From a virus (lineage: Duplodnaviria > Caudoviricetes), in IMG/VR virus record IMGVR_UViG_3300042542_006078: a stretch of DNA of 64,000 nucleotides; one strand, 5' to 3'. Numbering within the stretch: position 1 is the first letter of the stretch; the number at the start of each line of letters is the position of its first letter. Position numbers and translations under genes: made by a program. This document shows, one piece after another, positions 6,102 to 61,849 of the stretch. Under the pieces are notes generated by a model that was not told where the DNA came from, did not search any database, and saw only the letters and a program-made list of their open reading frames with translations.

Positions 6102-6137
6102 AGTAAAGCCGTCATCTAGGTGACGGCTTTACTTTTT
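6102..6137 (+). terminator. intrinsic terminator-like hairpin whose core resembles the CRISPR repeat stem
   Basis: Perfect 13-bp stem AGTAAAGCCGTCA/TGACGGCTTTACT, 6-nt loop, then a T run; follows the stop at 6046. Confidence 0.7.
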
Positions 6138-6211
6138 GGCCAATTCGATGTAATTTGCTTTTGTTCATTTTTTAAGAAACAAGTTTCCGATTAGCGGTTA
6201 GGAGCAAATTA

Positions 6212-6616
6212 ATGTTGTCAATCATCAATAGAATTGCCTTTTTTGCTGGTCAAATTAGTTCTCGTTTGGGTTTGGCTTCCTTTCCATCTGCCAATTCACA
6301 AAAATCACCGTTAGAATCTGATAGCAAGATTGATGTTAATATTCCTGATTACGGTAAGGATTCCATCTTAAATCCTGAAGCTCAAATGAATGATATTGCT
6401 TATAAAACTAAAATTCTGGTTGATGAAATCAATGAAGAAAAAAACAAGTTGATGTCACAAGTTTATTGTTCAGATTCTGATAAAATTAGAATTCAAGATT
6501 TGGATCAAAAGGAAAGGGAAGTAATGCAAGAGCGCAGGAGGATCATGGAATTGATCCGAAATGATTTTGGCATGCCTTCTAGTTGTGATTTATCTTCTGT
6601 TAATTGGAGGATTTAG
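6212..6616 (+). CDS. hypothetical protein
   Basis: AGGAG SD; 134-aa ORF, coiled-coil-like C half. Confidence 0.6.
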   Translation: MLSIINRIAFFAGQISSRLGLASFPSANSQKSPLESDSKIDVNIPDYGKDSILNPEAQMNDIAYKTKILVDEINEEKNKLMSQVYCSDSDKIRIQDLDQKEREVMQERRRIMELIRNDFGMPSSCDLSSVNWRI

Positions 6617-6628
6617 AAAAAAAGTTGT

Positions 6629-8092
6629 TTGAAAGATTTAGAAAATAGCAATAAGATGACTGGAAGGGTTATTGGCATGGACATGAAAGAAGTGTCAATG
6701 AAGATGGAGATTACCGGCTACGAACATCTTCATCTTCATTCGGATTTTTCAACCTTGGATGGATTCGGCCAAGTTGAAGAGTATTGTGTCCGTGCGCCGA
6801 AAATTAATCAAAATTTTCTTACTATTTCTGATCACGGGATGATGGGAGCGGTTCCTCGTCAAATTAAAGGATGTGAAAAGATCAATGACAAACTTGGTAA
6901 GGATACTTTGTCCCCAATTTTTGCAGTTGAGTTATATGTAAATCGCTTGCAAACTGAGATGACGGAAGAGAATGAAGGTAAGAAAATATATTCAAGCCTT
7001 ACTGAAATAGAACAAAACGAGTTCAAAAGTAGCAGCCATCTTCTTGCTATAGCTACAAATCAAGAAGGATATAAGAACCTTGTTCGCTTGTCGTCATGGG
7101 GTTGGACAAAAGGATTTTATCGTCGCCCCAGAGTCAATTATGAACAAATTAAAAAATACAAGGAAGGAATTATTTTTACTTCTTGCTGTTATGCAAGCGA
7201 GATAGGAAGAGCATTTGAAAGAGGTGGGGAAGACGAAGCGAACAATATGATTGAAAGATATATTGAAATGTTCGGTAAGGAACATTTTTATCTTGAGATT
7301 ATGCTTCTCGATTTTAAGAAGCAAAAGCCTTATGACAAATTTATTGTTAAGGCAAAAGAGCGATATGGATTGAAAATTATACTTTCAAATGATGTCCATT
7401 ATTGCAACAAAGAGGATAGTCATTATCAAAGATTGATGCTGATGATTCAGACAAATCGTACAATTGCTGAAATTGAAAAGGCATTAAAAGAAGATTCGGA
7501 TCAAGATTTTTTTGAGTTGCAGGATGCCAATCTTTGGATGAAGAGTGAAGAAGAATTAAATGCAAAGTGGTTGTCAGATTATGCGGACACTATTCCTTAT
7601 GAAATATTCTGCGAGGCAAAGAGAACTACTGTTGATATTTGCAGGAAAGCAAAAGGTGTTCAGCTTGATAGGAGCTTAAAGTTGCCTGTCATTCCTGATG
7701 GTGATGATAAGCTTAAAGAGGAAATTATGATTGGTTTCCAAAGTCGTGGATTGCCTAAAAATAGAGAATATTTAGATAGAATAAAAGAAGAATATAGTCT
7801 TATTACGAGGAAGGGATTTACAAGTTACTTTCTAATACAAAAGATGATGACAGATGAGGCTAGAAGGGTTTGTCGTGATATTTTGGGTTTTGGTGATGGT
7901 TCACAGGCTGTTGGTCCGGGTCGTGGGAGTTGTTGTGGTTCCCTTATTTGTTATTGTCTTGGAATCACAAGTGTTGATCCAGTTCGTGAAGGATTGCTTT
8001 TCAGTCGCTTTATGAGTGAAGCTCGTGGAGGCAGAAGTCTTAAATTGGAGTTCAGCAATATTGACCCCTTGCCTCCTGATGAGTTGTCTTAA
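6629..8092 (+). CDS. dnaE: DNA polymerase III alpha subunit, N-terminal fragment (PHP domain plus start of palm); true start probably 6683-6704
   Basis: HLHLHSDFSTLDG, TISDHG, SNDVHY, VGPGRGSCCGSLICYCLGIT, GLLFSRFM; stops before the PDxDxD motif. Confidence 0.9.
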   Translation: MKDLENSNKMTGRVIGMDMKEVSMKMEITGYEHLHLHSDFSTLDGFGQVEEYCVRAPKINQNFLTISDHGMMGAVPRQIKGCEKINDKLGKDTLSPIFAVELYVNRLQTEMTEENEGKKIYSSLTEIEQNEFKSSSHLLAIATNQEGYKNLVRLSSWGWTKGFYRRPRVNYEQIKKYKEGIIFTSCCYASEIGRAFERGGEDEANNMIERYIEMFGKEHFYLEIMLLDFKKQKPYDKFIVKAKERYGLKIILSNDVHYCNKEDSHYQRLMLMIQTNRTIAEIEKALKEDSDQDFFELQDANLWMKSEEELNAKWLSDYADTIPYEIFCEAKRTTVDICRKAKGVQLDRSLKLPVIPDGDDKLKEEIMIGFQSRGLPKNREYLDRIKEEYSLITRKGFTSYFLIQKMMTDEARRVCRDILGFGDGSQAVGPGRGSCCGSLICYCLGITSVDPVREGLLFSRFMSEARGGRSLKLEFSNIDPLPPDELS

Positions 8093-8886
8093 ACGCCAAT
8101 TCCAGTTATTGTAACTTCACCAGTAGATGAGTTAAAATTAACTACGAGTCTTTTCTCGCTGGCCTTTCTATTTATTGTTTTTAATTTTTCTTCAATTGAT
8201 TTTTTGTTTCCCGTAACTGTCAATTTGCCAACTTTTCCTTCAAGTGCGTCATCGATTGCAATATCGACTGCTGATTTTTGAAGATTTGGTCGAATTACGG
8301 CAGATGGAATTGGTGGAGATTCGGTTTGTTCTCCGCATTGCAGTCTTAACATTTCTGATTCATCTCTTCTGATTTTGACATTCATGTCGTCATCTATGAT
8401 GTTTTTTATTTCTGGAGCAGTTGTTATGTCTTCTTCATTTGGCAACATCCAATAATTGGGCATATTTGCCAATATGGTATTTGCTGTTAGTTTCATTTGT
8501 TTCCATAGTTCAACAAGAAGACTAAGACTTTTGCATCTGCTGATATTTCCAATTCGTTGATTCTCTTCGATTGCTTGCCATACTGCGTCATAGTTTGTAA
8601 GCTGATGTCTTATTGAGGTGGCAAAAACCCTGTTTGGTCTTCCTATTCCTCTTTTCTTTTTTTTCATTTGTTCTGCAAGTTCTTTTTTGTATTGTTCCAT
8701 TGCGTGATTGTGAATATTTTTTACAGATATATCTTGATATCTGCTTGTGTCGATGCTAAGTCTTTTGGCAATCTTGAAATCTGGTATTGGTTTTACGGAT
8801 TCTCTGGACCCAGTTCTTGCTTCATGAAGAAGCATGTTGAAATCAAGGGTTTCCCTTACTGCCAGCCATTCTATAAAGCTTTTCAT
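8089..8886 (-). CDS. hypothetical protein with capsid-targeting-like N-terminus
   Basis: Starts MKSFIEWLAVRE; TAAATA 4 nt upstream of the ATG. Confidence 0.65.
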   Translation of the reverse strand: MKSFIEWLAVRETLDFNMLLHEARTGSRESVKPIPDFKIAKRLSIDTSRYQDISVKNIHNHAMEQYKKELAEQMKKKKRGIGRPNRVFATSIRHQLTNYDAVWQAIEENQRIGNISRCKSLSLLVELWKQMKLTANTILANMPNYWMLPNEEDITTAPEIKNIIDDDMNVKIRRDESEMLRLQCGEQTESPPIPSAVIRPNLQKSAVDIAIDDALEGKVGKLTVTGNKKSIEEKLKTINRKASEKRLVVNFNSSTGEVTITGIGV

Positions 8887-8893
8887 GTCATAT

Positions 8894-9733
8894 TTAGAAG
8901 CTTTGTTTGATTTTTTTTACAACATATTTTGGATCAACAGTTTGATTGAATGTAATGATTCTGAAATTATTTGGGTCACAACATGGCGCACTTGATGGAT
9001 TATATTCAAGTATTTCTTGAATTTTATAAATGAAATTAATTGCGTATCTTTGCCACATGATCACTTTTAGCACATTGTTATCAGATGGATAAAGTAAAAT
9101 CATTCTTGGATGATTTATCGATCCTGCATAGTGAGTTGTTCCTGTATCGCATCCGATATAATATTTAGATTTTTCTATGTATTTGAAAGTTGTGTAAATA
9201 TTGTCGCTAAAGACGACTCGTCTGTCTTTTAATTTGAATTCATTTTTTTTATTGGAGTCAATGATACAAATTGAATTTGGAAAATTAAGTAGAATTTGTT
9301 GAAAAACTTCTTCGGAATTTTTCAATTCTCTTTCAAAGTAATAATTTGGTTTTATGTATGGAATAAACACACAGTCAAATTCAATTTTTGAATTGTCATA
9401 TTTTATTTGGCTTTCAGTATAAAACTTATTTGCTCTAAGGAATGGTGCCCAATTCCAGACACCGACAAGATCGATAGTTGTATTTTCCTCAGAATTATTT
9501 CTTACAAAATTGACTATGTTTTCTGGAAAAACATTAAGCATGGAAATGTAACGGTTTCCGTCTTGATAATTTATATTTATTTTTTTTGTTTTAAGATATT
9601 TGTAGAGTGCGCTTAGTTGTATTTCGTCGCCAATTCTATTTGCAGTATTACATTCAAATATTTTGCCTTTGATGATTGCGCTTTCCCACGCTTCTTTTTG
9701 ATCTTTGAATCTTTGTTCTATGATTTCTAGCAT
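8894..9733 (-). CDS. GT-B glycosyltransferase, family 9 (heptosyltransferase)-like
   Basis: RIGDEIQLSALYKYLK and YYIGCDTGTTHYAGSI..PRMILLY match the GT9 GD and DSG..H motifs. Confidence 0.65.
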   Translation of the reverse strand: MLEIIEQRFKDQKEAWESAIIKGKIFECNTANRIGDEIQLSALYKYLKTKKININYQDGNRYISMLNVFPENIVNFVRNNSEENTTIDLVGVWNWAPFLRANKFYTESQIKYDNSKIEFDCVFIPYIKPNYYFERELKNSEEVFQQILLNFPNSICIIDSNKKNEFKLKDRRVVFSDNIYTTFKYIEKSKYYIGCDTGTTHYAGSINHPRMILLYPSDNNVLKVIMWQRYAINFIYKIQEILEYNPSSAPCCDPNNFRIITFNQTVDPKYVVKKIKQSF

Positions 9734-9748
9734 GATTAAAAATTAAAA

Positions 9749-9783
9749 AAATAAGGGGGAAATTAATCTTCTCCCCCTTATTT
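9749..9783 (-). terminator. intrinsic terminator
   Basis: AAATAAGGGGGA/TCCCCCTTATTT stem with an A run on the left (U tract on minus), downstream of the minus-strand gene 9815-10591. Confidence 0.8.
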
Positions 9784-9814
9784 AAGTAATTAAATTTTTT
9801 TTGTCAACATTAAT

Positions 9815-10591
9815 TTACTCGTCTTCATCTTCGTCTTCGTCTTCTTCCTCATCTTCCTCATCTTCGTCTTCATATTCTTCGTCTTCTTCCTCATCTTCCT
9901 CATCTTCCTCATCTTCGTCTTCTTCTTCATCTTCGTCATCTTCATCTGATGCCACTACTTCAAAGATGGATTGGTTAAGTTTGCGATTGAAAGATTCGTT
10001 TTGAGTGATGAGTTCGGCAATAAAGTTGATAGTTTCTGGTTGTTCGGCCATTACAGCTATGAATGTTTCGAGAAGTCCACATCTTTTCATTTCCAAGACT
10101 GCATCAAGGACATACTGTGAATTGTCTTTGCAAACTGCGAATGTTTCTTTTAATGCTGCATATGCGTTGGATGGTGATGTTGTGAGTCCCGACAATCTTT
10201 CGTTGCGAATTTTCTTGGTGAATTCGGCCAAGCTAAGATTTTTGTTCTTATTGAGCCACTCCATGGTTGTTTTCTTGGGATAATCGCTGACAACTTTATT
10301 GTCTACTCCGTGTGCAGTTTTTGGCATGTTTTCGTAGCCCTTGCCGCCTTTATAGCCAAGACCATCAGAAGCGAATCCTTTATTTGGATCAGGAGCATCT
10401 TTGCCTCCCTTATAAGGTGATACAGATCCTGATTGTTTTACTCCACCTGCATTGGTGGGGAAAGCGCCAAGTTTGGGAGATGATCCATATGGTCCTTCAT
10501 AGTCTGGGACAAGTTGTGTTTTTGCTTTAGTGCCTTTTTCATTGGCTTTTTCACGCATGGATTCAATATAACGCTGAAAATTTTGTCTCAT
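9815..10591 (-). CDS. hypothetical protein with long acidic (D/E) C-terminal tail
   Basis: GGAG SD; starts MRQNFQRYIESMRE; ends in more than 40 D/E residues. Confidence 0.75.
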   Translation of the reverse strand: MRQNFQRYIESMREKANEKGTKAKTQLVPDYEGPYGSSPKLGAFPTNAGGVKQSGSVSPYKGGKDAPDPNKGFASDGLGYKGGKGYENMPKTAHGVDNKVVSDYPKKTTMEWLNKNKNLSLAEFTKKIRNERLSGLTTSPSNAYAALKETFAVCKDNSQYVLDAVLEMKRCGLLETFIAVMAEQPETINFIAELITQNESFNRKLNQSIFEVVASDEDDEDEEEDEDEEDEEDEEEDEEYEDEDEEDEEEDEDEDEDE

Positions 10592-10671
10592 GTGATTTTT
10601 CTCCGTCTGAATACCGTCATCTTATGATGGGTTTATAAAACTATATAATGTTTAATTTTCAAAAATTTAAC

Positions 10672-10677
10672 TAAATA
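10672..10677 (+). promoter_or_regulatory. T4-like late promoter motif TAAATA upstream of tmRNA
   Basis: CTAAATA ends 7 nt before the tmRNA 5' G. Confidence 0.55.
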
Positions 10678-10684
10678 ATCTTAC

Positions 10685-11038
10685 GGGGCCGTATTTAGAA
10701 TTCGATTCGGATGGACGGCTTGCAAGTGGCATGTAGAGGTTGGTTAGAAGGCCTCTTAAAAATCTAACCAAAGCCTTAACTGGCGAAACTGTTTACTCTT
10801 TGGCTGCATAAGTGCAACCACAGACTTAGGTAGCAATGCTAGTAGCGACCGAAAGTTTGATGTAAAATCTGGCTGGTCACATGTAGTTCAACGGGCAAGT
10901 GACGAGATTAAGTTGATAGAGCTTGGATGGGGTTTATTTGTTGTTCCCTTCAAGTCCACAATAAACAATAAGATAAACATGTAGATGCTTGCAGACAGTT
11001 ATGCGAAGACAGCGGGGCAGGTCCGCTCGGCTCCACCA
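10685..11038 (+). ncRNA. ssrA: tmRNA (one-piece), tag (A)GETVYSLAA*
   Basis: Acceptor stem GGGGCCG/CGGCTCC with G3:U wobble, discriminator A and encoded CCA. T-stem AGCGG/CCGCT. Resume context TAACT-GGC, tag ORF 10782-10811 ending LAA-TAA. Helix-2 pairing TGCAAG/CTTGCA. Confidence 0.95.
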
Positions 11039-11097
11039 TATACTTGCTTATTATTCTATGTTGGTCTAAAATTGATTAGGCCAACATGGAATAAAAA

Positions 11098-22988: not shown

Positions 22989-23276
22989 ATGGCTTGTAAA
23001 GTTGAATTGCGTGATCTTCCTTCTAATCCGAGTTGGTACGAGAAGGAGATTGCATTCAAAAAAATGTTCACTGCATTTAAGAAACAGGTTGCAGAAGCTG
23101 GAATTCTGCATGACTACAAGGCTAGGGAATTTTATGAAACTCCCGGCGAAGAGAGAAGAAGAAAGAAAAGAGAGGCCGAAAATGTGCGCCTAAAGGAAAA
23201 GTTGCGTGAGAACTTTCCTGAGAGACGCAAGCCCAAGAAGTCCGACAATAAGAAAGCAAAAACTAAAGGTGAATAA
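22989..23276 (+). CDS. rpsU: ribosomal protein bS21 homolog
   Basis: FKKMFTAFKKQVAEAGILHDYKAREFYETPGEERRRKKREA matches the bS21 signature. Confidence 0.85.
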   Translation: MACKVELRDLPSNPSWYEKEIAFKKMFTAFKKQVAEAGILHDYKAREFYETPGEERRRKKREAENVRLKEKLRENFPERRKPKKSDNKKAKTKGE

Positions 23277-23539
23277 TGACTGCTAAAAAAGGAACCATTA
23301 TGAGCTTGAGTGTCGATCTCGACATTCAGGAAAAAATGAAGGCTGTTGCTAAAAAAAGGAATATTAGTGTTTCTAAATTAATTCGTGATTTGGTTGAAAA
23401 GAATTTGCCAAATGTCGATGAAGATGTTGATGTCGTTGTATTCAAGGTTCCTGTTGAAATGAGAGTTTCTTCTGAAAGTCTAAAGCAATGGCTATCAGTT
23501 CGTGTTGATGCTGTAGTTAAGGCGCTTACCACTCCATAA
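23276..23539 (+). CDS. ribbon-helix-helix (CopG-like) DNA-binding protein
   Basis: TIMSLSV.LDIQEKMKAVAKKRNISVSKLIRDLVEK. Confidence 0.75.
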   Translation: MTAKKGTIMSLSVDLDIQEKMKAVAKKRNISVSKLIRDLVEKNLPNVDEDVDVVVFKVPVEMRVSSESLKQWLSVRVDAVVKALTTP

Positions 23540-23561: not shown

Positions 23562-24074
23562 ATGACTCAATCAAGCATGAAATTTTCCGACCCGTTAAAA
23601 ATAGTCGCAGTCGCAGATATTCCAAAGGCCATGGATGTGCCTTTGGATAATCTAATGGCGATTTTTCGATTGTGTAATAAAATGGAAAAAATCTGCGACG
23701 AAAATAATGGCATAGGACTGTCCGCAAACCAATTGGGCATTCCTTGGAAATTATTTATTGTAAAAAGAAACAGGACTTTTGAATATTATTTGAATTGCGA
23801 TTATATCGGAGAAGGCGAAAAGATGAGATCAGTTGAAGGATGCCTTTCTCTAAGAAGCGAATCTGGTGAATTTAGAAGATTTGAAGTTGAGCGTTTTTCC
23901 AAAATAAAGCTTAATGGCAAACAGTTGATTATATCTGGAATGCCTTCTTTGGTTTTGCACGATGTCAGCAGGCAAGAAAAAGATTTGTTTGCAGTTGTTT
24001 TTCAGCATGAAATCGATCATGGTTCTGATAAACTAATTTCGGATATTGGGAAAGAAGTTGAAATTTCTGATTGA
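23562..24074 (+). CDS. def: peptide deformylase
   Basis: All three PDF motifs present: GIGLSANQLG, EGCLS, QHEIDH. Confidence 0.92.
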   Translation: MTQSSMKFSDPLKIVAVADIPKAMDVPLDNLMAIFRLCNKMEKICDENNGIGLSANQLGIPWKLFIVKRNRTFEYYLNCDYIGEGEKMRSVEGCLSLRSESGEFRRFEVERFSKIKLNGKQLIISGMPSLVLHDVSRQEKDLFAVVFQHEIDHGSDKLISDIGKEVEISD

Positions 24075-24094
24075 AATCTCGGAGTGAATGAGCG

Positions 24095-24976: not shown

Positions 24977-24997
24977 AAGCAATCCGTCACAAGATGG
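24977..24997 (+). promoter_or_regulatory. degenerate CRISPR-repeat-like hairpin in 5' UTR
   Basis: AAGCAAT-CCGTC-ACAA-GATGG, ends 16 nt before ATG 25014. Confidence 0.4.
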
Positions 24998-25013: not shown

Positions 25014-25508
25014 ATGAGCAAGGATGTTCTTATGTTTCCTTTTAATTCACGCAATGAGTCATCAAAAGTTGTCCACAGCTTGCTTGATGGGCTTGTGGAT
25101 TATTCTGAGTCATCAAAAGATGATGATCTTGTCAACAATCAAATTGTCGAAGAATTTAAGCAGAATGCAAAAAATTTGGCTATAAAGTATGCCTCTGAGT
25201 ATTTCAAAGGCAAGAGTCTTTATGTTGGCGGCAAAATTACGGAACAGATTTTGATTAACGATAAAATAATTTCCACCATACTGAACTCAGATATGTTGAG
25301 CAGCATCGACAAAGCGCATGGTGGCATAAATGGTAACGAGGACTTGGTTTTCAAGACAAGTCTTGATGGTGTTGATGGTGGGGCAAAAATGATCATTGAT
25401 ATTTTGAATGATATTTCACTATCCCCTTTTCGCATACCCAAGGAATTCGCTGGTGGCATTTTGTTGTTGCATTTAGAATTAGTTGAGGGGGTTGTTTTTG
25501 AATCGTGA
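25014..25508 (+). CDS. hypothetical protein
   Basis: GAGG SD; 164 aa. Confidence 0.65.
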   Translation: MSKDVLMFPFNSRNESSKVVHSLLDGLVDYSESSKDDDLVNNQIVEEFKQNAKNLAIKYASEYFKGKSLYVGGKITEQILINDKIISTILNSDMLSSIDKAHGGINGNEDLVFKTSLDGVDGGAKMIIDILNDISLSPFRIPKEFAGGILLLHLELVEGVVFES

Positions 25509-26046: not shown

Positions 26047-26456
26047 TGCTGTCTTTTCACGAATGGAGAGCAAAAAGGCTTGATGAAGCTGCCAAAAAAG
26101 GTAAGCCAAAAAAGGCTCCTGTGGCAAGGCATGACATTGAAACATGGCTTAAGGAAATAGAAAGTCTTAAGAAAGACCTAGAAGAACTTAAAAAAGCCAA
26201 GAAAATAGCCGCTCAAAAACTCGCTAGACTGGCAGATATTGAAAAGCTTGATTCTAAGAAACCCGATTCTAAGAAACCCGATTCTAAGAAACCCGATTCT
26301 AAGAAACCCGATTCTAAGAAACCTGATTCTAAGAAACCTGATTCTAAGAAACCTGATTCTAAGAAACCTCTTAAAAAATATGTTTCTAAGAAGATTAAGA
26401 AAAAAGGCGACACAAGATTAAAAAATCCGTCAGAAATTGACAAAGAGAAAAAATGA
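26046..26456 (+). CDS. Lys-rich protein with (DSKKP)8 repeat and capsid-targeting-like N-terminus
   Basis: MLSFHEWRAKRLDEA; TAATG stop/start coupling. Confidence 0.7.
   Translation: MLSFHEWRAKRLDEAAKKGKPKKAPVARHDIETWLKEIESLKKDLEELKKAKKIAAQKLARLADIEKLDSKKPDSKKPDSKKPDSKKPDSKKPDSKKPDSKKPDSKKPLKKYVSKKIKKKGDTRLKNPSEIDKEKK
26250..26369 (+). repeat. 15-bp tandem repeat x8
   Basis: GATTCTAAGAAACC(C/T): four CCC copies, then four CCT copies. Confidence 0.95.
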
Positions 26457-38307: not shown

Positions 38308-39258
38308 TTAGGCTATTACAGATGTGTCAACACTCTTCCATGCACCGCCAACATAGACCTCTATGTTGCTTGTGGCTGTGTTGTAGCAAATCATACCGTT
38401 GGTTGCAGTGCCAGCAGCAGCATCTCTTGCGGTAGCATTAGCATAGACTGGCATGACTGGCATACTTTGGATATAAATGTGACCATTTCTACCAGCACCA
38501 GAATTAGTGCCACAAGAAAGAAACATATCACCAGCACGATCTGTGCCAACACTATTACCAGTAGTAATTTCGATATCGCCACCACGACCATCTACTGTAC
38601 CAACGCCAGCTTCGATAAAGATGTCTCCGCCATTCACATCCATAGTAGCGGTTGAATTACCAGCATATATGCCTATGTCGCCTGCTTCTGGATCAGTTTC
38701 GCCGCTGCTGCCATCTCCATTACCGCTATCGCCAGCACGAATAGTTACACCACCAGCTTGACCATCATCGCCAGCATCGCCAGCTTCTAATAAAATACTA
38801 CCACCATCGCTGTCGCCAATGCCAGTAGATGCACTACCGCCATAGATATTTACATCGCCAGCATCGCTATTGTTTGCGCTGTCAGCATTGCCACCTCTAA
38901 TCGTTACACTTCCAGCGTCTGCATCTGGGCCATCTCCAGTATTGCCAGCTTCGATGTTGATGTTTCCGCCATTTCCGTCTCCATTTGCATTACCAGCATA
39001 AATATTTACATTGCCACCATCAGCATCAGTATTATCATCAGCACTTGGGTATCCTGCTCCAGTTTCGATTGTAATGTTTGCTGCATCAACGGAATTTACT
39101 GTTCCGTTTGCGGTAGAAATAATTATTTCCCTATTCAAATTTTCAAAAATTTGACTGACATCGACCAAGTTTTCTTGTTTTACAACATCATTCACGATTT
39201 TTGGAATGATGTCTACTGCCGATCCCGGTCCTGTGCCCTCAGTTGTTTGTGCGCCCAT
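38308..39258 (-). CDS. Gly/Asp-rich repetitive fibre-like protein
   Basis: Repeated GGxVxIxAG units; C-terminal GMICYNTATSNIEVYVGGAW; GAGGAG SD; TAAATA at 39294-39299. Confidence 0.7.
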   Translation of the reverse strand: MGAQTTEGTGPGSAVDIIPKIVNDVVKQENLVDVSQIFENLNREIIISTANGTVNSVDAANITIETGAGYPSADDNTDADGGNVNIYAGNANGDGNGGNINIEAGNTGDGPDADAGSVTIRGGNADSANNSDAGDVNIYGGSASTGIGDSDGGSILLEAGDAGDDGQAGGVTIRAGDSGNGDGSSGETDPEAGDIGIYAGNSTATMDVNGGDIFIEAGVGTVDGRGGDIEITTGNSVGTDRAGDMFLSCGTNSGAGRNGHIYIQSMPVMPVYANATARDAAAGTATNGMICYNTATSNIEVYVGGAWKSVDTSVIA

Positions 39259-42281: not shown

Positions 42282-42296
42282 CGTCACTAGGTGACG
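42282..42296 (+). promoter_or_regulatory. CGTC-N7-GACG hairpin abutting a start codon
   Basis: CGTCACTAGGTGACG ends 1 nt before ATG 42298; near-identical to the core of the 6102 hairpin (CGTCATCTAGGTGACG). Confidence 0.45.
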
Positions 42297-42297: not shown

Positions 42298-43299
42298 ATG
42301 GAAACACTCAAAATTAAGTATGTCAATTTTTCTAGCATGAGGAGATTCGGCGTTGAAATAGAAGTTGGCCATGAAGTGAAGAAGAAAGATGTTCACTTGG
42401 CAATAAAGTCTTCTTCTCAACACGATGTCTATACAAGCCGATATGGATTGTCGAGCAATAACAGGTATTGGCATGTAAAAGATGATGCTACTTGTGGAAT
42501 CAAGGGAAGAAAAGGCCCCAAGGGTGTCGAGATAGCTTCTTTTGTAGGACACGGAAATCAAGACATCGATCATATTTCGCAAATTGCTGGAATTCTTTCT
42601 CAAATAGGATGCAAAACGAATGATAATTGCGGTCTTCACATTCATGCCGAGGCTGTTGATTTTACGATAGAGCAATGCAGTATATTGGTTGCTTACTGGG
42701 TTAAGATAGAAAAAATTCTCAGTATGGCTTTGCCAATTAGAAGAAATAGAAGCGAATATTGCAAATTCACTTTTCCTCATGATGCTTCTTTTGATTTCAA
42801 ATTGTGCAGAGAGACAAAATATTCAGCCGATTTGTTTTGGCAAATAATTTCTCCCAAGAATTTGGGTTTTTTTGATAATGAAGACAGAAGGTTCAATTTG
42901 AATCTTGTTAATTTTGTTCGATCAATTAGAGATCAGAATTTACATAGAAAAACAATTGAGCTTAGATGGCCTGAAGGTTCTCTTGATCCAATAGACATTA
43001 GTTGTTGGACTAGGTTGTTTTTGTCATTTGTTGAAAATTGCAAGTTTATGATCATGCCAAATAATTTGGAGGATCTTTCTTTGCAGCAAACATTGTGTTG
43101 TTTTGGTCTTGAAAATTTACAATCATTTACGATTTTCAGTAGGAATATGCATGAAACTAAGACTTGGTTTCTTGAAAGGATAATCAAGCATGAATCGGAT
43201 TCTGTTGAATTTTACAATGATGAAAAAATTCGCAATACGGTAATAGAAGCTAAAGAAATACTGAATAAAATGTGGTCGCCCTTGAGGAGATATGCTTGA
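42298..43299 (+). CDS. putative amidoligase (COOH-NH2 ligase-type 2)
   Basis: RRFGVEIE, WHVKDD.T, GVEIAS, CGLHIH, TIELR..GSLD. Confidence 0.8.
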   Translation: METLKIKYVNFSSMRRFGVEIEVGHEVKKKDVHLAIKSSSQHDVYTSRYGLSSNNRYWHVKDDATCGIKGRKGPKGVEIASFVGHGNQDIDHISQIAGILSQIGCKTNDNCGLHIHAEAVDFTIEQCSILVAYWVKIEKILSMALPIRRNRSEYCKFTFPHDASFDFKLCRETKYSADLFWQIISPKNLGFFDNEDRRFNLNLVNFVRSIRDQNLHRKTIELRWPEGSLDPIDISCWTRLFLSFVENCKFMIMPNNLEDLSLQQTLCCFGLENLQSFTIFSRNMHETKTWFLERIIKHESDSVEFYNDEKIRNTVIEAKEILNKMWSPLRRYA

Positions 43300-47584: not shown

Positions 47585-48371
47585 TATTTTGAGCAACAAA
47601 TGGTTCTTCACAGCAGATTGTCATTTTGGTCATGCAAACATCATCAAATATTGCAAAAGACCATTTATTTCAAACAATGACATGAAAATCTGCGATTTGA
47701 TCAAGAATGGCACCATACCCGCATCTGACTACAAGGTTCCTGAAATTAGCATTGATCTGATGGATAAGACAATTGCTAAAAGCATAAACGAAGTAGTAGG
47801 TAAAAATGACAACTTGGTGATTGTTGGGGATTTCTGTCTCCCTCATGGTGACAAAAATGAAAAATATTATCGTAGCATGATTAATTGCCAAAATGTTTTT
47901 CTAGTTTTGGGCAATCACGATGACAGAGATGCCTGCTCGGATGTTTTCACCGCATGTTACGAAAATTATTTATTCAAGATCGATGGGCAAAAAATATTTG
48001 TCAATCATTATCCAGCTAGATCTTGGAATAAGTCTAGCCAAGGATCATGGATGCTATATGGACATGTTCATGATGCATTTCATGATGAAGACAATGGTAG
48101 TCTTTCAAAACATGATAAACATGTTTTGTCTGAAAGTTTTGCTTCATTGATAAGAAAAAGAGGAATTCAACAGGATGGTCTTCTAGAAGAATTGCTTGAA
48201 ATTGTCGCTTCAATGAACGGTTCTCAATTAACTTTGGATGTAGGTGTCGATAATTTGTTGAGACCAGATTTGCCATTTGGCACTCCTTGGTCAATGTCTG
48301 ATATTAGGTCTTATATGCAAGAGAAAATTCCATTATGGAATGCACGAAAAACTGTTCATAGATTGATTTGA
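47553..48371 (+). CDS. calcineurin-like metallophosphoesterase
   Basis: ADCHFGH, VGDF, LGNHD, NHYP, LYGHVH, DVGVD. Confidence 0.88.
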   Translation: MLDLIHCGGHDILSNKWFFTADCHFGHANIIKYCKRPFISNNDMKICDLIKNGTIPASDYKVPEISIDLMDKTIAKSINEVVGKNDNLVIVGDFCLPHGDKNEKYYRSMINCQNVFLVLGNHDDRDACSDVFTACYENYLFKIDGQKIFVNHYPARSWNKSSQGSWMLYGHVHDAFHDEDNGSLSKHDKHVLSESFASLIRKRGIQQDGLLEELLEIVASMNGSQLTLDVGVDNLLRPDLPFGTPWSMSDIRSYMQEKIPLWNARKTVHRLI

Positions 48372-48949: not shown

Positions 48950-49750
48950 ATGAATAATAAGTTCCTAATCGGACAACGCCTTGTCTTTCAGAACCAAGAA
49001 GTTTGTGTAATCACACATGATTCGGAAAAAAATAAATACTTTTGTCAGGTAGGAGAGGCTGGTTTGCAAATGTGGATTCCTGAAGATCAACTTCAGGAAG
49101 GATTGCCAGATGGTCCTCCAACTACGCATTTCAATAGGCGAACTCCTCATCTCATGATTGTGGATAGCTTTTATAAAAATCCTGATGAAATTCGCAACTT
49201 CGCTATGCAGCAAGAGTTCGCCTATGATAATCGATTCTATAAGGGACAAAGAACCAAGGAAAGATATCTCTGGCCTTATCTTAAGGAAGAATTTGAAAGA
49301 ATTATTGGAAGACCAATTGTTGACTGGTTAGATCAGCCAGCAAATGGATGTTTCCAAATCACTGGCTTTCAAGACCCCTTGGTTTATCATAGTGATGCTC
49401 AAAGCTATGCCGCTGCAATTTACCTTACTCCATTTGCTCCTCCTTCAGCCGGAACAAGTTTTTGGCGTGATAAGAAGCATCATGTTCGTCGTCCTCCAAA
49501 TCACCCTTTGGAATTTGATAGGTTCTCAAGCGATCAGGAAAGAATTCAAGTTGCAGATGAAGTTTACAATGACTACAACATTCTTCATCCTGATAATTGG
49601 GAATTAGTCGATAGGGTTGGAGCAATCTACAATCGTCTTGCTATTTGGGATGCAAAGATGATCCACTCGGCAAGTACATACGAAGGACTAATTAGCGAAG
49701 TAGTTGATAAGGCAAGATTGGTTCAACTTTTCTTTTTTACTGTTAGATAA
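48950..49750 (+). CDS. DUF6445-like 2OG-Fe(II) oxygenase-fold protein
   Basis: IVDSFYKNPDEIR, LVYHSD, AAAIYLTP..GTSFW, YNRLAIWDAKMIHSA, RLVQLFFF. Confidence 0.7.
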   Translation: MNNKFLIGQRLVFQNQEVCVITHDSEKNKYFCQVGEAGLQMWIPEDQLQEGLPDGPPTTHFNRRTPHLMIVDSFYKNPDEIRNFAMQQEFAYDNRFYKGQRTKERYLWPYLKEEFERIIGRPIVDWLDQPANGCFQITGFQDPLVYHSDAQSYAAAIYLTPFAPPSAGTSFWRDKKHHVRRPPNHPLEFDRFSSDQERIQVADEVYNDYNILHPDNWELVDRVGAIYNRLAIWDAKMIHSASTYEGLISEVVDKARLVQLFFFTVR

Positions 49751-51978: not shown

Positions 51979-51986
51979 GGAGTGAA

Positions 51987-56618: not shown

Positions 56619-56749
56619 ATATAAATTATAAAAGATAAAATTATCACATTTTTTATTTCTCTTCTTTTTTAAGATATATAATATATTCATAAATTTGAAA
56701 TGAAAAATAAAACTTTGTAAAATTTTATTTTCTGTAGAAAGGTAATTTA

Positions 56750-57493
56750 ATGGACTGCACAGTAATCATTCCCACTCTTGAAATGGCCTTGCCAGCAACT
56801 GATTTAATTGTACAAGAATTAGTTCATAATTCTGAAAATGTAAAGAAGATAATTTTTATAAATAACAGAAAAGAACCAACTTTAGCGGCAAGATATTCAG
56901 ATTTTTCTAAGATAGTTTTTTTAGATAATTTGCCAAATTTGATTGTAAATCCTGCATGGAATTATGGCATGAATTTGGTTGAAACCAAGTATTACATTTT
57001 ACTCAATGATGATTTAATTGTAAGTGGAAAATTGATAGATGAGATTATAAAATTACATGAATCTAATGATTCTTTTAATCTTACAACAATAAACACTCAT
57101 CGAATATTTGGCATGACTCCTGATAATTTAGCAAATGCAAAAAAAGAGTTTTCTCAAAGTAAATTATCTATTCCTTTGAAATATAAAAAAGTTCATTACC
57201 CCAATTATCGTCAAGGATGGTTCATGCTTGGCAAAACTGCTGAGTGGACTCCAATTTATATACCAGCATGTGGTGTGTTGATGAATGGAGATGATTGGAT
57301 TTATCAAAGAAATCTTGAAAAATTTGGAGCAGCTATTTTTATTGAAAATAATTATTTATGGCATTTTGAAAGTACATCTTCCAATCATGTGTCTCATGGA
57401 AGAAATGATGTAATTGAAAGTGTTGCAAAACCATTAGAACTAGACCATGAATTGATTGTTAGAAATTATGGAAATATTTTTTTGGGCAAATAA
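56750..57493 (+). CDS. GT2 family glycosyltransferase
   Basis: TVIIPT, FINN, NPAWNYG, YYILLNDD, GDDWIY, WHFES. Confidence 0.8.
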   Translation: MDCTVIIPTLEMALPATDLIVQELVHNSENVKKIIFINNRKEPTLAARYSDFSKIVFLDNLPNLIVNPAWNYGMNLVETKYYILLNDDLIVSGKLIDEIIKLHESNDSFNLTTINTHRIFGMTPDNLANAKKEFSQSKLSIPLKYKKVHYPNYRQGWFMLGKTAEWTPIYIPACGVLMNGDDWIYQRNLEKFGAAIFIENNYLWHFESTSSNHVSHGRNDVIESVAKPLELDHELIVRNYGNIFLGK

Positions 57494-57498
57494 TTAAG

Positions 57499-57972
57499 AT
57501 GAAAACTTTAGTTTTAGCGAGATATAATGAAAACATTTCATGGTCAAGTAAATATGACCATGTTTATATTGTTCAGAAGGAAAGAGATTTGCCAAATAAA
57601 GGAAGAGAGTCTTCATCTTATATTTGGTGGGTAATTCAAAATTATGAAAAATTACCAGAAAAAGTGCATTTTTTACAAGGCAATCCATTTGCTCACACAA
57701 ACGATAATTTGGAATCGACTTATTTTCCTGAAACTGATAGAAATGGCTGTGCGCTTCATTGCGGTTTGAAATTTGAAGAAATAACTATACCTCTTGGAAT
57801 AGAGTTGCCAGAAAGATGGTCATTTCCTGCTGGAGCAAATTTTGAAGTCACTAAAAGTGAAATTTTGAAATATAAGTATGATTGGTATAAAAAAGCTTAT
57901 AATCTGTCTATGAATCACGAACAAGCGCCTTGGATTTTTGAGCGTTTATGGTGTTTGATATACAAATTATAA
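57499..57972 (+). CDS. DUF3431-like protein
   Basis: LVLARYNENISW, NKGRESSSYIWW..NYEKLP..FLQGNPFAH, PWIFERLW. Confidence 0.75.
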   Translation: MKTLVLARYNENISWSSKYDHVYIVQKERDLPNKGRESSSYIWWVIQNYEKLPEKVHFLQGNPFAHTNDNLESTYFPETDRNGCALHCGLKFEEITIPLGIELPERWSFPAGANFEVTKSEILKYKYDWYKKAYNLSMNHEQAPWIFERLWCLIYKL

Positions 57973-57989
57973 AAAAGGAAAAATTAAAT

Positions 57990-59072
57990 TTGAAAAGAGT
58001 ATTAGTTGTTGGTTGCGGGTTGTATGGGGCAACAGTAGCCAGATTGTTATGTAAAAATTTTCGAGTGTATTTAATTGATAAAAGAAATCATATAGGCGGT
58101 AATTGTTATTCAGAATTCAAAAATAACATACATGTTCACAAATATGGACCACATGCATTTCATACCAATAGTGTAAAAATATGGGATTTTATAAGACAAT
58201 ATTCGGATTTTAACGATTTTAGGCTTAAAGTTATAGTAAATTATGATGGAAAGTACTATAACTTCCCAATAAATCTTATAACTCTGAATAATATTCTAGG
58301 CATAAAGAATTTGAAAGAAGCCGAAGAGTTTATTCAAAATAGAAAAGAAAATAATCAAAATTTTCAAGATTTTGTTATATCAAAGGTCGGCGTAAATTTG
58401 TATAAAATATTTTATGAAGGTTATACGACTAAACAATGGAATAAAAACCCAATTGAATTACCGGCATCAATAGCAAAAAGAATTCCTATAAGACTGGATT
58501 TTGATGAAAATTATTTTACAGATAAATATCAAGGCGTTCCGATAAATGGTTATACTAGAATGTTTGAAAATATGCTGGATCATAAAAATATAGAATTTAA
58601 TTTGAATGTGGATTTTTTTGATAACAAGAAATCATTAATTAATGATTTCGACCATGTGATTTATACTGGAAAAATTGATCAATTTTTTGATTATCAAGAT
58701 GGAGTTCTTGAATATAGGTCTTTGAAATTTCGAGAAGAGTATCACGATTCTACTTTTCAAGGAAACGCTCAAATTAATTATACAAACGCAGAAATACCTT
58801 ACACAAGAATAGTTGAACATAAATTTTTTCACAATCCATCAATTAAACACACAATTGTAACTTACGAATATCCAGATGACTATAATCCAGAAAAAATACC
58901 TTATTACCCTATTGAAACTGAAAACAATAAATTATTGTATTTCAAATATAAGTCACTTGCAGATGAGATGGAAAATTTTACATTCGGAGGTCGCCTTGGC
59001 ACATATTCATATATGAACATGGATCAAATAATTGGCAAGGCGATGAATGATTGTGAAAAAATAAATATTTAG
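57990..59072 (+). CDS. glf: UDP-galactopyranose mutase
   Basis: VVGCGLYG FAD motif, HIGGNCY, HKYGPHAFHT, YQGVP..GYT, EYRSL, GRLGTYSY.MDQ. Confidence 0.93.
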   Translation: MKRVLVVGCGLYGATVARLLCKNFRVYLIDKRNHIGGNCYSEFKNNIHVHKYGPHAFHTNSVKIWDFIRQYSDFNDFRLKVIVNYDGKYYNFPINLITLNNILGIKNLKEAEEFIQNRKENNQNFQDFVISKVGVNLYKIFYEGYTTKQWNKNPIELPASIAKRIPIRLDFDENYFTDKYQGVPINGYTRMFENMLDHKNIEFNLNVDFFDNKKSLINDFDHVIYTGKIDQFFDYQDGVLEYRSLKFREEYHDSTFQGNAQINYTNAEIPYTRIVEHKFFHNPSIKHTIVTYEYPDDYNPEKIPYYPIETENNKLLYFKYKSLADEMENFTFGGRLGTYSYMNMDQIIGKAMNDCEKINI

Positions 59073-59836
59073 TTTTTTTGCCAAAAAACTCCGCAGCCAT
59101 CTATGTGTGTTAAAGGTGTTGTTATTTTATTTCTTTCTCTAAACACAATTGTTGCTCTTTGACATCCTCTTACTGCGCTGTAGTCATCAATAATTACAAA
59201 TCCTTGGTTCTCAACTTTATGATAGCAAGAATCAAAAACATCCATAGTTGATTTATACATGTCTCCATCCATGCGTAAAATGCATAGTTTTTTTATGTCT
59301 TGGTTATTTGGCAATGTATCTGAAAACCAGCCTTTCAAAAATATGACATTCTCGTCCAATTCTTGATGCATTTCAAAGTTTTTCTTAACTTCTTCCAGAG
59401 AAACCTGAAGAAATTCCATTGTGTGATGATGATCTCCTTCATCTTCTGGATGTTCAGGTTTTGGCAATCCTTCAAATGAATCGGCAACAAAAACTTTTTT
59501 GTTCATATTGTATAGTTGAAAATATTTTTTGACGAATATACATGCTCCGCCACGCCATACTCCAGTTTCTATAAAGTCGCCATCAATATTATTTATTCTG
59601 ACTTCATCAAGACATTTGTGCAAGTTATTCAAGCGCATGATTCCTATCATAGTTTGCGCTCTTTGAGGCCAGTCAGAGCCATTTTTCCTATTGGCTGGTA
59701 CTGAAGTTTTTAGAATATTTTGAATTTCTTGATCATTTGGGTATTGATTTGTTTCAAAATATTTTTGAAAAATGTCTTCATCATTGACGGTATCTGTTAA
59801 AATTCTTTTTAGGAATTCCAGTTTCAAATCAATCAC
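59069..59836 (-). CDS. TylF/MycF/NovP family sugar O-methyltransferase
   Basis: QTMIG..RL.NL, GDFIETGVWRGG, DSFEGLP, KGWFSDTLP, LRMDGDMYKST. Confidence 0.9.
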   Translation of the reverse strand: MIDLKLEFLKRILTDTVNDEDIFQKYFETNQYPNDQEIQNILKTSVPANRKNGSDWPQRAQTMIGIMRLNNLHKCLDEVRINNIDGDFIETGVWRGGACIFVKKYFQLYNMNKKVFVADSFEGLPKPEHPEDEGDHHHTMEFLQVSLEEVKKNFEMHQELDENVIFLKGWFSDTLPNNQDIKKLCILRMDGDMYKSTMDVFDSCYHKVENQGFVIIDDYSAVRGCQRATIVFRERNKITTPLTHIDGCGVFWQKN

Positions 59837-60410
59837 AAATTCTCCTTAGGATTGTTAATCCGTTGTTGTTGACATAAACTTTATGGATTTCCCATTTTTT
59901 GCCTTCATGTGTATGCAAGAATTCATCAATTGCAGGAAGAAGTCCTTGTTTATCAGAATCGATATTTTTTAGTTTACAATCTGGCCAATATATTGGTTCA
60001 TCTAAATTTCCATATGTTGTTGTATCATGCAAGATAATATATTTTTTTGTTTTATGTGAATGTAATTCAAGTTCTTTTTTAAGCTGAAGATATCTGTGTA
60101 AGGTGTCTATGAAAAGCAATTCTGTTTCTTCAATTTCTACATCAAGAACATCAGCATTGATGTATTGAAAATTAATTTCTTCTTTTTCCGCTTCTCTCTT
60201 TACATCGCTCATGTCAATAACTGATATATCATAGCATTTGAATGTTTTTGGTTTGCCTGCGAGTAGAGCCCATGTAGACACAATTCCTCTTACTCCCATT
60301 TCGGTGATATGTTGGCATTTTGCCGCATAGTTTTTCAGCGTTTCAAGATGCTGATTAATGTCTGATTCTGTGTTTTTTTTAAGTTCGTAATTTTGGTTTA
60401 TTATCGACAT
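59829..60410 (-). CDS. class I SAM-dependent methyltransferase
   Basis: EMGVRGIVST, LLFIDTLH..LKKEL, IILHDT. Confidence 0.75.
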   Translation of the reverse strand: MSIINQNYELKKNTESDINQHLETLKNYAAKCQHITEMGVRGIVSTWALLAGKPKTFKCYDISVIDMSDVKREAEKEEINFQYINADVLDVEIEETELLFIDTLHRYLQLKKELELHSHKTKKYIILHDTTTYGNLDEPIYWPDCKLKNIDSDKQGLLPAIDEFLHTHEGKKWEIHKVYVNNNGLTILRRICD

Positions 60411-60439
60411 AATTCCTCAATTGTTGTTTACATATAATT

Positions 60440-60853
60440 ATGGCAGCAAAGTTAGGTTTTCAAGAATATGTTCTATTAAAAGAGGGCAACAGCCGTACCG
60501 CTCTCAAGACATTGCTTTATCCTCTTTCGTATGGAGGATTGGGCAATTATCCTCCTGCTCACTACCTTCCTCAAGCAGCGGATGCTATTCTCTATGTTTC
60601 TCAAGATGAAAGATTGTACTGTAATGGCGACAAGTCTCCGTTCGATATAACTCATATTCCCGGTCATAAACAATATGGAGACAAGGTCAATAACGGTGAG
60701 GGCAAGCCTTGGGATATTCATTTAGTTCCCGGCAAGCCAAGAGAGCCGCTTGATCATGATCTTCCCGGCAAACAAATTCCTTACAAAGGATTTGTGAGGC
60801 TCATTACTAACATAAAATGTATTAGTCCCAAAGGACATAATTTGCCTGATTGA
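60440..60853 (+). CDS. hypothetical protein with capsid-targeting-like N-terminus
   Basis: MAAKLGFQEYVLLKE; no SD. Confidence 0.6.
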   Translation: MAAKLGFQEYVLLKEGNSRTALKTLLYPLSYGGLGNYPPAHYLPQAADAILYVSQDERLYCNGDKSPFDITHIPGHKQYGDKVNNGEGKPWDIHLVPGKPREPLDHDLPGKQIPYKGFVRLITNIKCISPKGHNLPD

Positions 60854-60875
60854 ACATTCCGTCAACTCCTGACGG
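60852..60875 (+). promoter_or_regulatory. CRISPR-repeat-like hairpin in 5' UTR
   Basis: GAACATT-CCGTC-AACTCCT-GACGG: exact stem and loop length; followed by SD GGAG (60878) and ATG 60889. Confidence 0.7.
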
Positions 60876-60888
60876 ATGGAGAGTAAAA

Positions 60889-61116
60889 ATGAATGATAAA
60901 CACATGAGAACATTGGCCGCTTTTGAGCAAGTCGGGGCCTTTCTGAACATATTTGCCAATTTCCTTTATTCTTATCACAAAGACCTCGTCAACGCTGGAT
61001 TCCAAAGAGACGAAGCATTAAAATTGGTTAGGCAGCTACAAGCGACAATATTTAAGGAATCATTTAACAATAGCACAACAAATGATCCTGATTTGGATCG
61101 GGATTACGAAGAATAA
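60889..61116 (+). CDS. hypothetical protein
   Basis: SD GGAG supports ATG 60889 over TTG 60850. Confidence 0.6.
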   Translation: MNDKHMRTLAAFEQVGAFLNIFANFLYSYHKDLVNAGFQRDEALKLVRQLQATIFKESFNNSTTNDPDLDRDYEE

Positions 61117-61198
61117 TTCTTAGTGTTTGGTGAAAATATATCGCCATGCTGAATCATTTTTTTAGACATCGCCTTCAGAATCTTAAATAGATTAGGAG

Positions 61199-61795
61199 GT
61201 GACTGTGTTTGCACATCGGAAAGTGCTTGTTCTCAATAAATCTTGGAGAGCCATTGGCATTATCACTCTTGAAAAGGCCATGGCAAAGATATTTTCTACT
61301 TATGATGATGGAACACCAAAGGCGAAAATTATTGATCCTAGCAATAATTTCATGCTTTTTGAGTGGGAAGAATGGTCGATGATAAGACCATCTGAAGGCG
61401 AGTTGAAAATAAGGACAATTAACAACTCTTTTAGAGTTCCAGAGGTTATTCAGTATACCAAATACGATAAAATGCCTTCTACCAAGGCGCACTTCAATAG
61501 AAAGAGTTTGTATCGAAGAGACAGAAGTACATGTCAATATTGCGGCGAGAAAAAAATAGCCGAGCAGCTTTCATTGGATCATGTTTTGCCAAGATGTCAG
61601 GGAGGCATGACTAATTGGGAAAACATTGTTGTTGCTTGCAAGGATTGCAATTCAAAGAAGGCTGGAAGAACTCCCAAGCAAGCTGGCATGAAATTATTGA
61701 AAGAACCCAAAAGGCCATTGTCAAGTTTGTATCTTGATGAATTGCATATTGAATCATGGTCGCATTTCTTGAATTTTGATGACATTATTTCTTGA
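61199..61795 (+). CDS. HNH endonuclease
   Basis: RDRSTCQYCG, LDHVLPR.QGG..NWEN.V.ACKDCN.KK; AGGAGG SD; TAAATA at 61184. Confidence 0.9.
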   Translation: MTVFAHRKVLVLNKSWRAIGIITLEKAMAKIFSTYDDGTPKAKIIDPSNNFMLFEWEEWSMIRPSEGELKIRTINNSFRVPEVIQYTKYDKMPSTKAHFNRKSLYRRDRSTCQYCGEKKIAEQLSLDHVLPRCQGGMTNWENIVVACKDCNSKKAGRTPKQAGMKLLKEPKRPLSSLYLDELHIESWSHFLNFDDIIS

Positions 61796-61825
61796 TTTGA
61801 TTTGCCGATCATGCTAAAATCAAGT

Positions 61826-61849
61826 TGATAAACCGTCTTTTTCAGACGG
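61826..61849 (+). promoter_or_regulatory. CRISPR-repeat-like hairpin in 5' UTR
   Basis: TGATAAA-CCGTC-TTTTTCA-GACGG: exact 5-bp stem and 7-nt loop with unpaired flanks; 20 nt before TTG 61870. Confidence 0.7.

Follow-up and report, generated by a model that had tools for sequence, protein, structure and literature searches.

The stretch of DNA analysed here (64,000 nt, referred to below as the window) comes from the IMG/VR virus record IMGVR_UViG_3300042542_006078 (Caudoviricetes) and represents a 36% GC piece of the genome of a huge phage from lake water. It encodes the type V-I CRISPR effector Cas12i and a CRISPR array, and also contains a dispersed set of hairpins, typically CCGTC-N7-GACGG, that share their stem with the array repeat and lie shortly before the start codons of other genes, including infC, the gene for IF3. 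These hairpins appear to be best explained as solitary copies, some of them decayed, of the mature 23-nt portion of the type V-I repeat that the phage itself carries, located in the 5′ leaders of genes. Judging from the sequence, the chances are about even that they serve as Cas12i-binding sites in mRNA leaders and control translation or stability.

A pattern scan recovered the three exact copies of CCGTC-N7-GACGG that a preliminary description of this DNA had reported outside the array (28364–28380, 60859–60875 and 61833–61849), with nine more copies in the array. That description had also estimated that hardly any such copies should occur by chance, and this proved correct: base composition predicts 0.0071 copies outside the array against the 3 observed (Poisson P(≥3) ∼6e-8), an excess of about 400-fold, and 100 shuffles of the window yielded no exact copies. 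When all 5-bp stems with loops of 3–9 nt were compared, CCGTC/GACGG was the only GC-rich one that recurred in the window. The near matches listed earlier at 28966, 24984, 42282, 10614 and 6109 are all present, with a different pairing at 42282 (see below). The distance to the start codon, given before as 1–22 nt, is 3, 13, 1, 16, 1 and 22 nt for the hairpins at 28364, 60859, 28966, 24984, 42282 and 10614, respectively, but the copy at 61833 falls outside that range, being 26 nt from the conserved ATG at 61876 and 20 nt from an in-frame TTG. Distances between units in the window range from 600 nt to 30 kb, and none of the units has another repeat at array spacing. None of the exact-stem copies is followed by a T run. 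The hairpin at 6109 had been counted with the family and has to be removed from it: it is an ordinary intrinsic terminator, the only site with that structure (6105–6138, plus strand; 10-bp stem at 6105–6130, 6-nt loop and a T run), and follows the open reading frame (ORF) 5408–6046.

The cas12i gene (1322–4423, plus strand) encodes a Cas12i2-like effector of 1033 aa that matches Cas12i2 over its full length (phmmer against PDB, 6LTP, E 1e-96). In an alignment, the residues of Cas12i2 responsible for processing of precursor CRISPR RNA (crRNA), Lys18, His485 and His486 (the ERK Lys and the HH pair), are conserved in the window protein; a cognate effector with its processing residues is thus encoded in the same genome as the hairpins. 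The array, which follows cas12i (4602–5293, plus strand), has 10 copies of a 36-nt repeat, whose 3′-terminal 23 nt, AGAAAT-CCGTC-C-NNN-G-TT-GACGG, have the same layout as the mature Cas12i2 repeat. The latter is 23 nt long, with a 5′ tail of 6 nt ahead of a 6-bp stem that has a 3-nt loop and a 2-nt bulge (PMC7567891). Cas12i2 cuts its precursor between U(-24) and A(-23), which requires A(-23), G(-22) and A(-21) in addition to the three protein residues; it reads the UU bulge base-specifically and contacts a ∼19-nt segment of the guide in addition to the seed (PMC7567891). The cas12i gene itself has no repeat unit upstream. Within the array leader (4424–4601), the 5′ half of the repeat is partially copied twice (CCCTCTCGCAA at ∼4457 and ∼4547), and the spacers are ∼50% GC, compared with 36% for the phage, with no target in any relative's DNA examined.

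The likeness to the repeat is graded across the window copies, and the best copy is the one in the infC leader (28358–28380, plus strand). With a covariance model trained on the array repeats alone (R2), it was the only significant solitary copy in the window (25.6 bits, E 0.0045). This unit, with the handle AGAAAT, the stem CCGTC/GACGG and the loop AATATTA, equals the repeat over CTTAGAAAT plus both stem arms, and the match runs 3 nt further upstream (28355–28357). Its sixth pair is A-U and its bulge is UA. Direct comparison with the repeat confirmed that, among the window copies, only this one retains the AGAAAT handle, as had been noted before; it is also the only one in the window that has the mature type V-I form, with both tail and stem exact, and it includes A(-23), G(-22) and A(-21), the bases needed for Cas12i2 processing. 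Of the window copies, it alone looks fully competent for both binding and 5′ processing. The unit ends 3 nt ahead of the infC ATG (infC, 28384–28944, plus strand; Pfam IF3_N, E 4.5e-30, and IF3_C, E 5e-28) and begins 22 nt downstream of a sigma70-like promoter recognized from its sequence (28307–28335, plus strand; TTGACA-17-TACATT with a TG extension), whose −35 element is kept in the infC relatives. It is identical in G001, the nearest record (80 kb, estimated to be 18% complete), which shares the window sequence from 19361 onward. The infC leaders of relatives with 70–78% protein identity have no unit, which limits it to the window lineage. Two DNA sequencing runs gave no difference within the infC unit or the 42282 hairpin among the differences listed, at a divergence of only ∼0.25%. 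Two metatranscriptome runs contained ∼7% of the words of the 27.5–30.5 kb region, in five and four short contigs, respectively, located away from the units. The sequence following the infC unit was also tried as a guide: against the infC start of contig L024 it has a TTA protospacer-adjacent motif (PAM) but mismatches at seed positions 1–2, and contig L025 has no PAM; both pairings were rejected.

The remaining window copies are stem-only or degenerate relative to the mature repeat. Three of them keep an exact or wobble stem without the AGAAAT tail and the UU bulge. The first (28960–28982, plus strand; CCGTC-N7-GGCGG, with a G.U pair in the sense strand) lies between the infC stop codon and the ATG at 28984 of a gene for a 404–407-aa protein; it is not significant under R2 and has no counterpart in the related record G002. 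The second (60853–60875, plus strand; handle AACATT, exact stem) lies between a stop codon at 60853 and the Shine–Dalgarno (SD) sequence GGAGAG with the ATG at 60889; its hairpin is present in the centroid fold, and the orthologous spacer of G002 contains a different hairpin (CCCC/GGGG). The third (61827–61849, plus strand; handle GATAAA, exact stem) is in the leader of a small gene whose product begins with MWLKLS (ATG 61876), where a sigma70-like promoter (61792–61820, plus strand; TTGATT-17-TAAAAT with TG) has its −10 box ending 6 nt before the unit, with transcription predicted to start at ∼61827. A degenerate unit with the handle AGCAAT and the hairpin CCGTC-ACAA-GATGG (24978–24997, plus strand), upstream of the ATG at 25014, scored 11.3 bits under R2 (E 2.4, not significant). 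The hairpin at 42282–42296 (plus strand), next to the ATG at 42298 of an amidoligase gene (Pfam Amidoligase_2), had been read as CGTC-N7-GACG; a hairpin is indeed there, but its actual form is CGTCAC-TAG-GTGACG, with a 6-bp stem and a 3-nt loop, and it is likely a decayed unit. On the minus strand, ATAAAC-CCATC-N7-GACGG (10614–10636), upstream of the ATG at 10591, is at best a doubtful member and we do not retain it, given the A.C mismatch in its sense strand, its absence from the R2 hits and the lack of a unit in the leader of the G002 ortholog. Each window hairpin forms in the predicted fold of its own leader, and yet the folding stability of these leaders is unremarkable (z from 0 to −1), which means that it is the sequence, not the stability, that is conserved and points to a protein reader. 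The assignment of the copies other than that of infC to the family is based on the stem statistic and on the homology of their genes to genes with good units in relatives. Inside a conserved gene for a 242-aa protein (33930–34658), 29 nt from its start, there is a CCGTC-N7-GACAG hairpin (33959–33975); G002 has an exact CCGTC-N7-GACGG at the matching position, 115349, and the two proteins are 91% identical. This hairpin may reflect coding constraint or may be an internal unit.

The window sequence was found in lake metagenomes of at least 15 studies, and related viral contigs and whole records were scanned with the 23-nt pattern, allowing up to two mismatches. G002 and G003, which encode an array and a Cas12i 42% identical to that of the window, have seven and five solitary units, respectively; there are three each in G004 and G005 and two in G010. 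The reversed pattern, used as a control, had no matches in these five records. Eleven distinct solitary units in G002/G003, G004/G005 and G010 were found by R2 at E<0.05 and have the form of the mature repeat. In the relatives, the full 23 nt are conserved, including the unpaired handle and the UU bulge, the latter being retained in the loops of units from G002, G003 and G004. Only the 3′ 23–26 nt of the 36-nt repeat are ever copied in the solitary units. Six related records without a detected Cas12i (G006, G007, G008, G009, G013 and G014), including the 361-kb, 97% complete G008, have no units in ∼1.4 Mb, and the orthologous leaders in the Cas12i-negative records are plain SD leaders. These comparisons support a link between the family and Cas12i-type repeats throughout a clade of huge phages. 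Searches of viral contigs with either Cas12i protein found the same lineage only. Lakes harbour several lineages of Cas12i phages side by side, and the handles of these lineages are interchangeable. Among the matches listed there was no bacterial array with this repeat; all were single matches, as expected by chance in 596 Gb; those in viral contigs L008, L009 and L013 were likewise taken as chance.

Some of the units in relatives have features of their own. The unit at 58853 of G010 (L070:1354-1376) has a loop of the Cas12i2 type, TTTCATT, and a closing U-A pair that is compensatory; ∼40 nt separate the unit from a terminator-like hairpin downstream, and no Cas12i was found in this 101-kb fragment. 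In several G002 and G004 units (contigs L053, L054, L058 and L059), the 3′ arm is repeated just downstream (GACGG-ACGGA..., up to three times in the G004 unit at 38769); the repeated arm often forms the SD and could allow alternative pairings with the 5′ arm.

Several units have been kept in homologous leaders. Units are present in the MWLKLS leader at 61827 of the window, at 139550 of G002 and at 47748 of G004, the latter two with the full handle and scores of 24.9 and 34.4 bits, whereas the corresponding leader in the Cas12i-negative G006 is a plain SD leader. In the amidoligase leader, G002 has the unit GGAAAT-CCGTC-N7-GACGG at 123596 (29.6 bits) where the window has the degenerate 42282 hairpin, and the leaders in G006 and G007 have none. 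The gene behind the 24984 hairpin has a homolog in G002 (38% identity), and this G002 gene follows a good unit at 106991. Thus, three window hairpins (61833, 42282 and 24984) are in leaders of genes homologous to unit-bearing genes of relatives. A further leader, of a gene whose product begins with MSNTLPVRIT, has units in contig L010 (from the same sample as G001) and in G003. In the MWLKLS, amidoligase and MSNTLPVRIT leaders the flanks have diverged while the units persist. In G003, the MSNTLPVRIT gene is preceded by two units 9 nt apart (49369–49423, minus strand; L065:19369-19423) that directly follow a TTGACT-17-TAGAAT promoter; this tandem pair is the sole exception to solitary spacing, and 9 nt is far below the array spacing. 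One G004 unit has a 4-nt insertion relative to its G002 ortholog, so that the seed register is not conserved. Loss can be seen as well: upstream of the p92 gene of the window (ATG 24095), the sequence TGAAATC-T-CGGAG (24072–24084) resembles the G002 unit at 106117 with the hairpin deleted, an apparent loss of the p92-leader unit; the two p92 proteins are 64% identical.

All units are co-oriented with the downstream gene. In ∼17 of the 21 compiled units a plausible start codon lies 0–30 nt downstream on the same strand, with the SD often abutting the 3′ arm, whereas by our estimate roughly 1.6% of positions would have a start codon within that distance; the earlier observation that the motif sits near starts thus holds across the compiled set. 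Sigma70-like promoters are found within 30 nt of 10 of the 21 units, the promoter-proximal placement looked for in solitary units; the copies at 60853 and 28960 are intercistronic and have no promoter. In six of the 21 units, that at 61827 among them, a sigma70-like −10 box ends 4–7 nt before unit position −23, compared with 1.1% of random positions. Such an alignment means that transcripts would begin at the 5′ end of a mature crRNA, with no processing needed. A full unit at 145196 of G002 (L055:5196-5218; 35 bits) has a −10 box, TATGAT, that ends 6 nt before it and no downstream ORF on that strand, making it a candidate stand-alone crRNA-like RNA or small RNA of the RNA anti-CRISPR (Racr) type in a Cas12i-encoding phage. 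About 13 kb past the window end, a sigma70-family gene (L063:17320-18231, corresponding to G001 57320–58231; Pfam Sigma70_r4, E 1.4e-07, with a weak r2 match) is preceded by TTGACA-17-TATTCT, 4 nt and the hairpin ATAAAT-CTGTC-N7-GACGG, with a G.U pair in the sense strand. If this unit-like hairpin is real, it would place a phage sigma factor in the same set as infC.

For the analysis of stem pairs, 25 units were aligned in sense orientation. Among their stem cells, 96.8% are paired; each of the nine one-sided changes leaves a sense-strand G.U pair, and G010 and G012 show one compensatory change apiece (C-G to U-A and G-C to A-U, respectively). The four unpaired cells all belong to three copies classed as decayed, in-ORF or doubtful. 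Wobble and compensatory changes in the sense strand, together with the asymmetric handle, favour a function in RNA over a double-stranded DNA operator. The hairpins are thus supported as a repeat-derived, sense-strand, RNA-level family at translation-initiation regions.

Since the units are repeat-derived, read in the sense strand, located at initiation regions and in some cases at a predicted transcription start, we infer that Cas12i binds the leaders as it binds crRNA. Genes would acquire a copy of the crRNA handle at the transcription start or just before the ribosome-binding site, and Cas12i would bind the handle and stem of the leader mRNA in the crRNA manner, with the following 20–30 nt, including the SD and the start codon, occupying its guide channel. 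In Cas12i2, the equivalent stretch is the seed together with the ∼19-nt guide segment contacted by the protein. Bound Cas12i could block ribosome access or alter decay, possibly in a 5′-end-dependent way, with the outcome set by the Cas12i level. The gene set tied to Cas12i would comprise IF3 and the sigma70-like factor in the window lineage, and genes for an amidoligase, a glycosyltransferase, a ParB-like protein and small unknown proteins in the relatives. Window copies other than that of infC keep the stem but not the handle or the UU bulge, and any binding to them would be graded. The broader proposal, that Cas12i has a second job as a sequence-specific binder of mRNA 5′ ends, with a post-transcriptional regulon that includes IF3 and a sigma factor in huge freshwater phages, seems to us a tentative one, somewhat short of an even chance.

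Several observations weigh against Cas12i binding in leaders. Short intergenic spacers alone would put any tolerated insert near a start codon. The hairpins at 60859, 61833 and 28966, without handle or UU bulge, are not significant under R2, and Cas12i may not bind them. Units turn over, with the infC unit absent from G002 and the p92-leader unit deleted in the window, so any regulon is not fixed. Finally, the comparison of Cas12i-positive and -negative relatives that the preliminary description had proposed bears out the association in two Cas12i records, which have units, and in the six negatives, which have none; G004/G005 and G010, which also carry units, are fragments (15–21% complete) in which Cas12i was not seen. 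The unit-negative records are partly more distant, and phylogeny therefore confounds the co-occurrence.

Among other explanations, an unlikely one is that the units are decoy or guide-like RNAs, similar to Racrs or crRNAs, that load Cas12i, the leader position being merely economical for transcription; they could titrate the phage's own Cas12i, act as an RNA anti-CRISPR on a competing Cas12i phage or yield single-repeat guides. Viral solitary repeat units and Racrs are typically recognized as single repeats right behind a promoter (PMC10651486), the unit at G002 145196 is promoter-driven with no ORF behind it, the ∼40 nt and terminator-like hairpin that follow G010 units recall small RNAs, and several Cas12i lineages with interchangeable handles share lakes. 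However, this phage owns Cas12i and an array with the same handle, so that decoys would poison its own system; most units are followed within 0–30 nt by an SD and a start codon, not by a terminator; and no bacterial array among the matches listed has this repeat. As for guides, the only full match is to their own locus, which has no TTN PAM, and a search for TTN plus seed elsewhere, covering 64–168 kb per genome, returned only matches of 9–10 nt, the chance level. The shifted seed register of orthologous units in G004 and G002 also speaks against guides. A blastn-short search with the spacers and pseudo-spacers against all DNA gathered gave self matches and 14-nt chance matches only.

It is distinctly unlikely that the hairpins work without Cas12i, as stabilisers at mRNA 5′ ends, as recombination cassettes of the PeSL type or as sites for another RNA-binding protein, with their repeat ancestry incidental. 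Promoter-proximal stem-loops before non-core genes that are frequently gained and lost do resemble PeSL cassettes (PMC2839356), and the window lineage shows drift of both handle and loop with a hairpin retained, at 42282 even with a changed stem sequence. Nevertheless, PeSL stem-loops are effective terminators, whereas the stems here are weak (5 bp), have no T run and are not conserved with a promoter as one module; a generic hairpin role would not require the conserved unpaired handle and UU bulge seen in relatives, and the records without Cas12i have no units. We regard it as very unlikely that the units are neutral debris, array fragments scattered by illegitimate recombination that survived in harmless intergenic DNA. 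Gain, loss and decay between lineages and the degeneracy of several window copies would fit this explanation, but it leaves unaccounted for the shared sense orientation of all units, the alignment of the transcription start with position −23 in six of the 21, the wobble-preserving substitutions, the retention of units in homologous leaders despite diverged flanks and the restriction of copying to the 3′ part of the repeat. The suggestion, also made in the preliminary description, that a dimeric transcription factor, such as the RHH protein encoded nearby (23276–23539), binds the dyad as an operator in double-stranded DNA is extremely improbable: the dyad is perfect, with half-sites one helical turn apart, and several copies overlap promoter-proximal DNA, but the handle, which is conserved, lacks symmetry and lies on the sense strand in every case, G.U stem variants would be mismatched half-sites (C.A on the opposite strand), such a factor would have to bind every array repeat too, and the copies at 60853 and 28960 are intercistronic without a promoter. 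These last three explanations account for fewer facts than the binding of Cas12i to leader mRNAs does.

If Cas12i does bind these leaders, this would be a third use of CRISPR repeats, beside decoys and promoter-targeting guides, in which a class 2 effector would serve as a translational operator protein. A role of this kind would help to account for the retention of compact V-I systems that have no adaptation genes by huge phages, would connect CRISPR with the way in which the phage takes over translation (IF3) and transcription (sigma factor), and would offer a natural precedent for Cas12-based tools for mRNA control and processing.

Other features of the window include a SpoVR-like gene at its start (33–719; Pfam E 5e-21), a gene for a PHP/DNA polymerase III alpha N-terminal protein (6629–8092), in-frame tandem repeats within ORFs at 26250–26368 (15-nt unit, 7.9 copies) and 5691–5779 (33-nt unit, 2.7 copies), and an acidic, TCT-rich tract (9818–9947) that is in frame in the minus-strand gene 9815–10591.

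Both V-I systems and IF3 genes have been described before in huge phages (PMC7162821), and single CRISPR repeat copies outside arrays are likewise known from phage genomes, as solitary repeat units and Racrs (Camara-Wilpert et al. 2023, PMC10651486); the literature searched contained no report of solitary units of type V-I, or of repeat handles placed in the mRNA leaders of a phage that encodes Cas. Racrs, which inhibit the host system, are small non-coding RNAs carried by elements without cognate cas genes (PMC10651486). In contrast, the phages described here have up to at least seven units per record, the phage encodes the matching Cas12i and an array, and most units are inside mRNA leaders, where they are followed by an SD and a start codon instead of a terminator. 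The crRNA-like regulators CreR/CreA, crlRNA and viral Cracr (bioRxiv 10.1101/2023.03.10.532045, 10.1101/2023.03.03.530964 and 10.1101/2024.10.29.618823) are similar in that a degenerate repeat has been exapted and the Cas effector regulates instead of immunising. However, they guide the effector to PAM-flanked promoter DNA through at least 9 PAM-proximal bp, whereas the target proposed here would be the repeat-carrying RNA itself and the effect would be on translation; no such promoter target was found in the 64–168 kb searched per genome, and the seed is not conserved between orthologs. The noncanonical crRNAs of Cas9 in C. jejuni (PMC8224270) are mRNA segments loaded into a Cas effector by chance pairing with tracrRNA; here, a dedicated conserved cis element is present in the leaders, and Cas12i needs no tracrRNA. 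The PeSL cassettes of T4-type phages (PMC2839356 and PMC4122927) are similarly dispersed combinations of a sigma70-like promoter and a stem-loop, associated with accessory genes and rapidly gained and lost, but their stem-loops are terminators unrelated to CRISPR repeats, unlike the weak stems found here, which have no T run and agree with the Cas12i handle at every base. The nearest functional analogues are phage translational operators such as those of T4 RegA and RegB, where a phage protein acts at the initiation regions of a set of early mRNAs, shutting them off or processing them (PMC3014915). There is no relationship in sequence or protein between the two systems: in the huge phages, a CRISPR effector would do the reading, and its own crRNA handle, in copied form, would be the operator.

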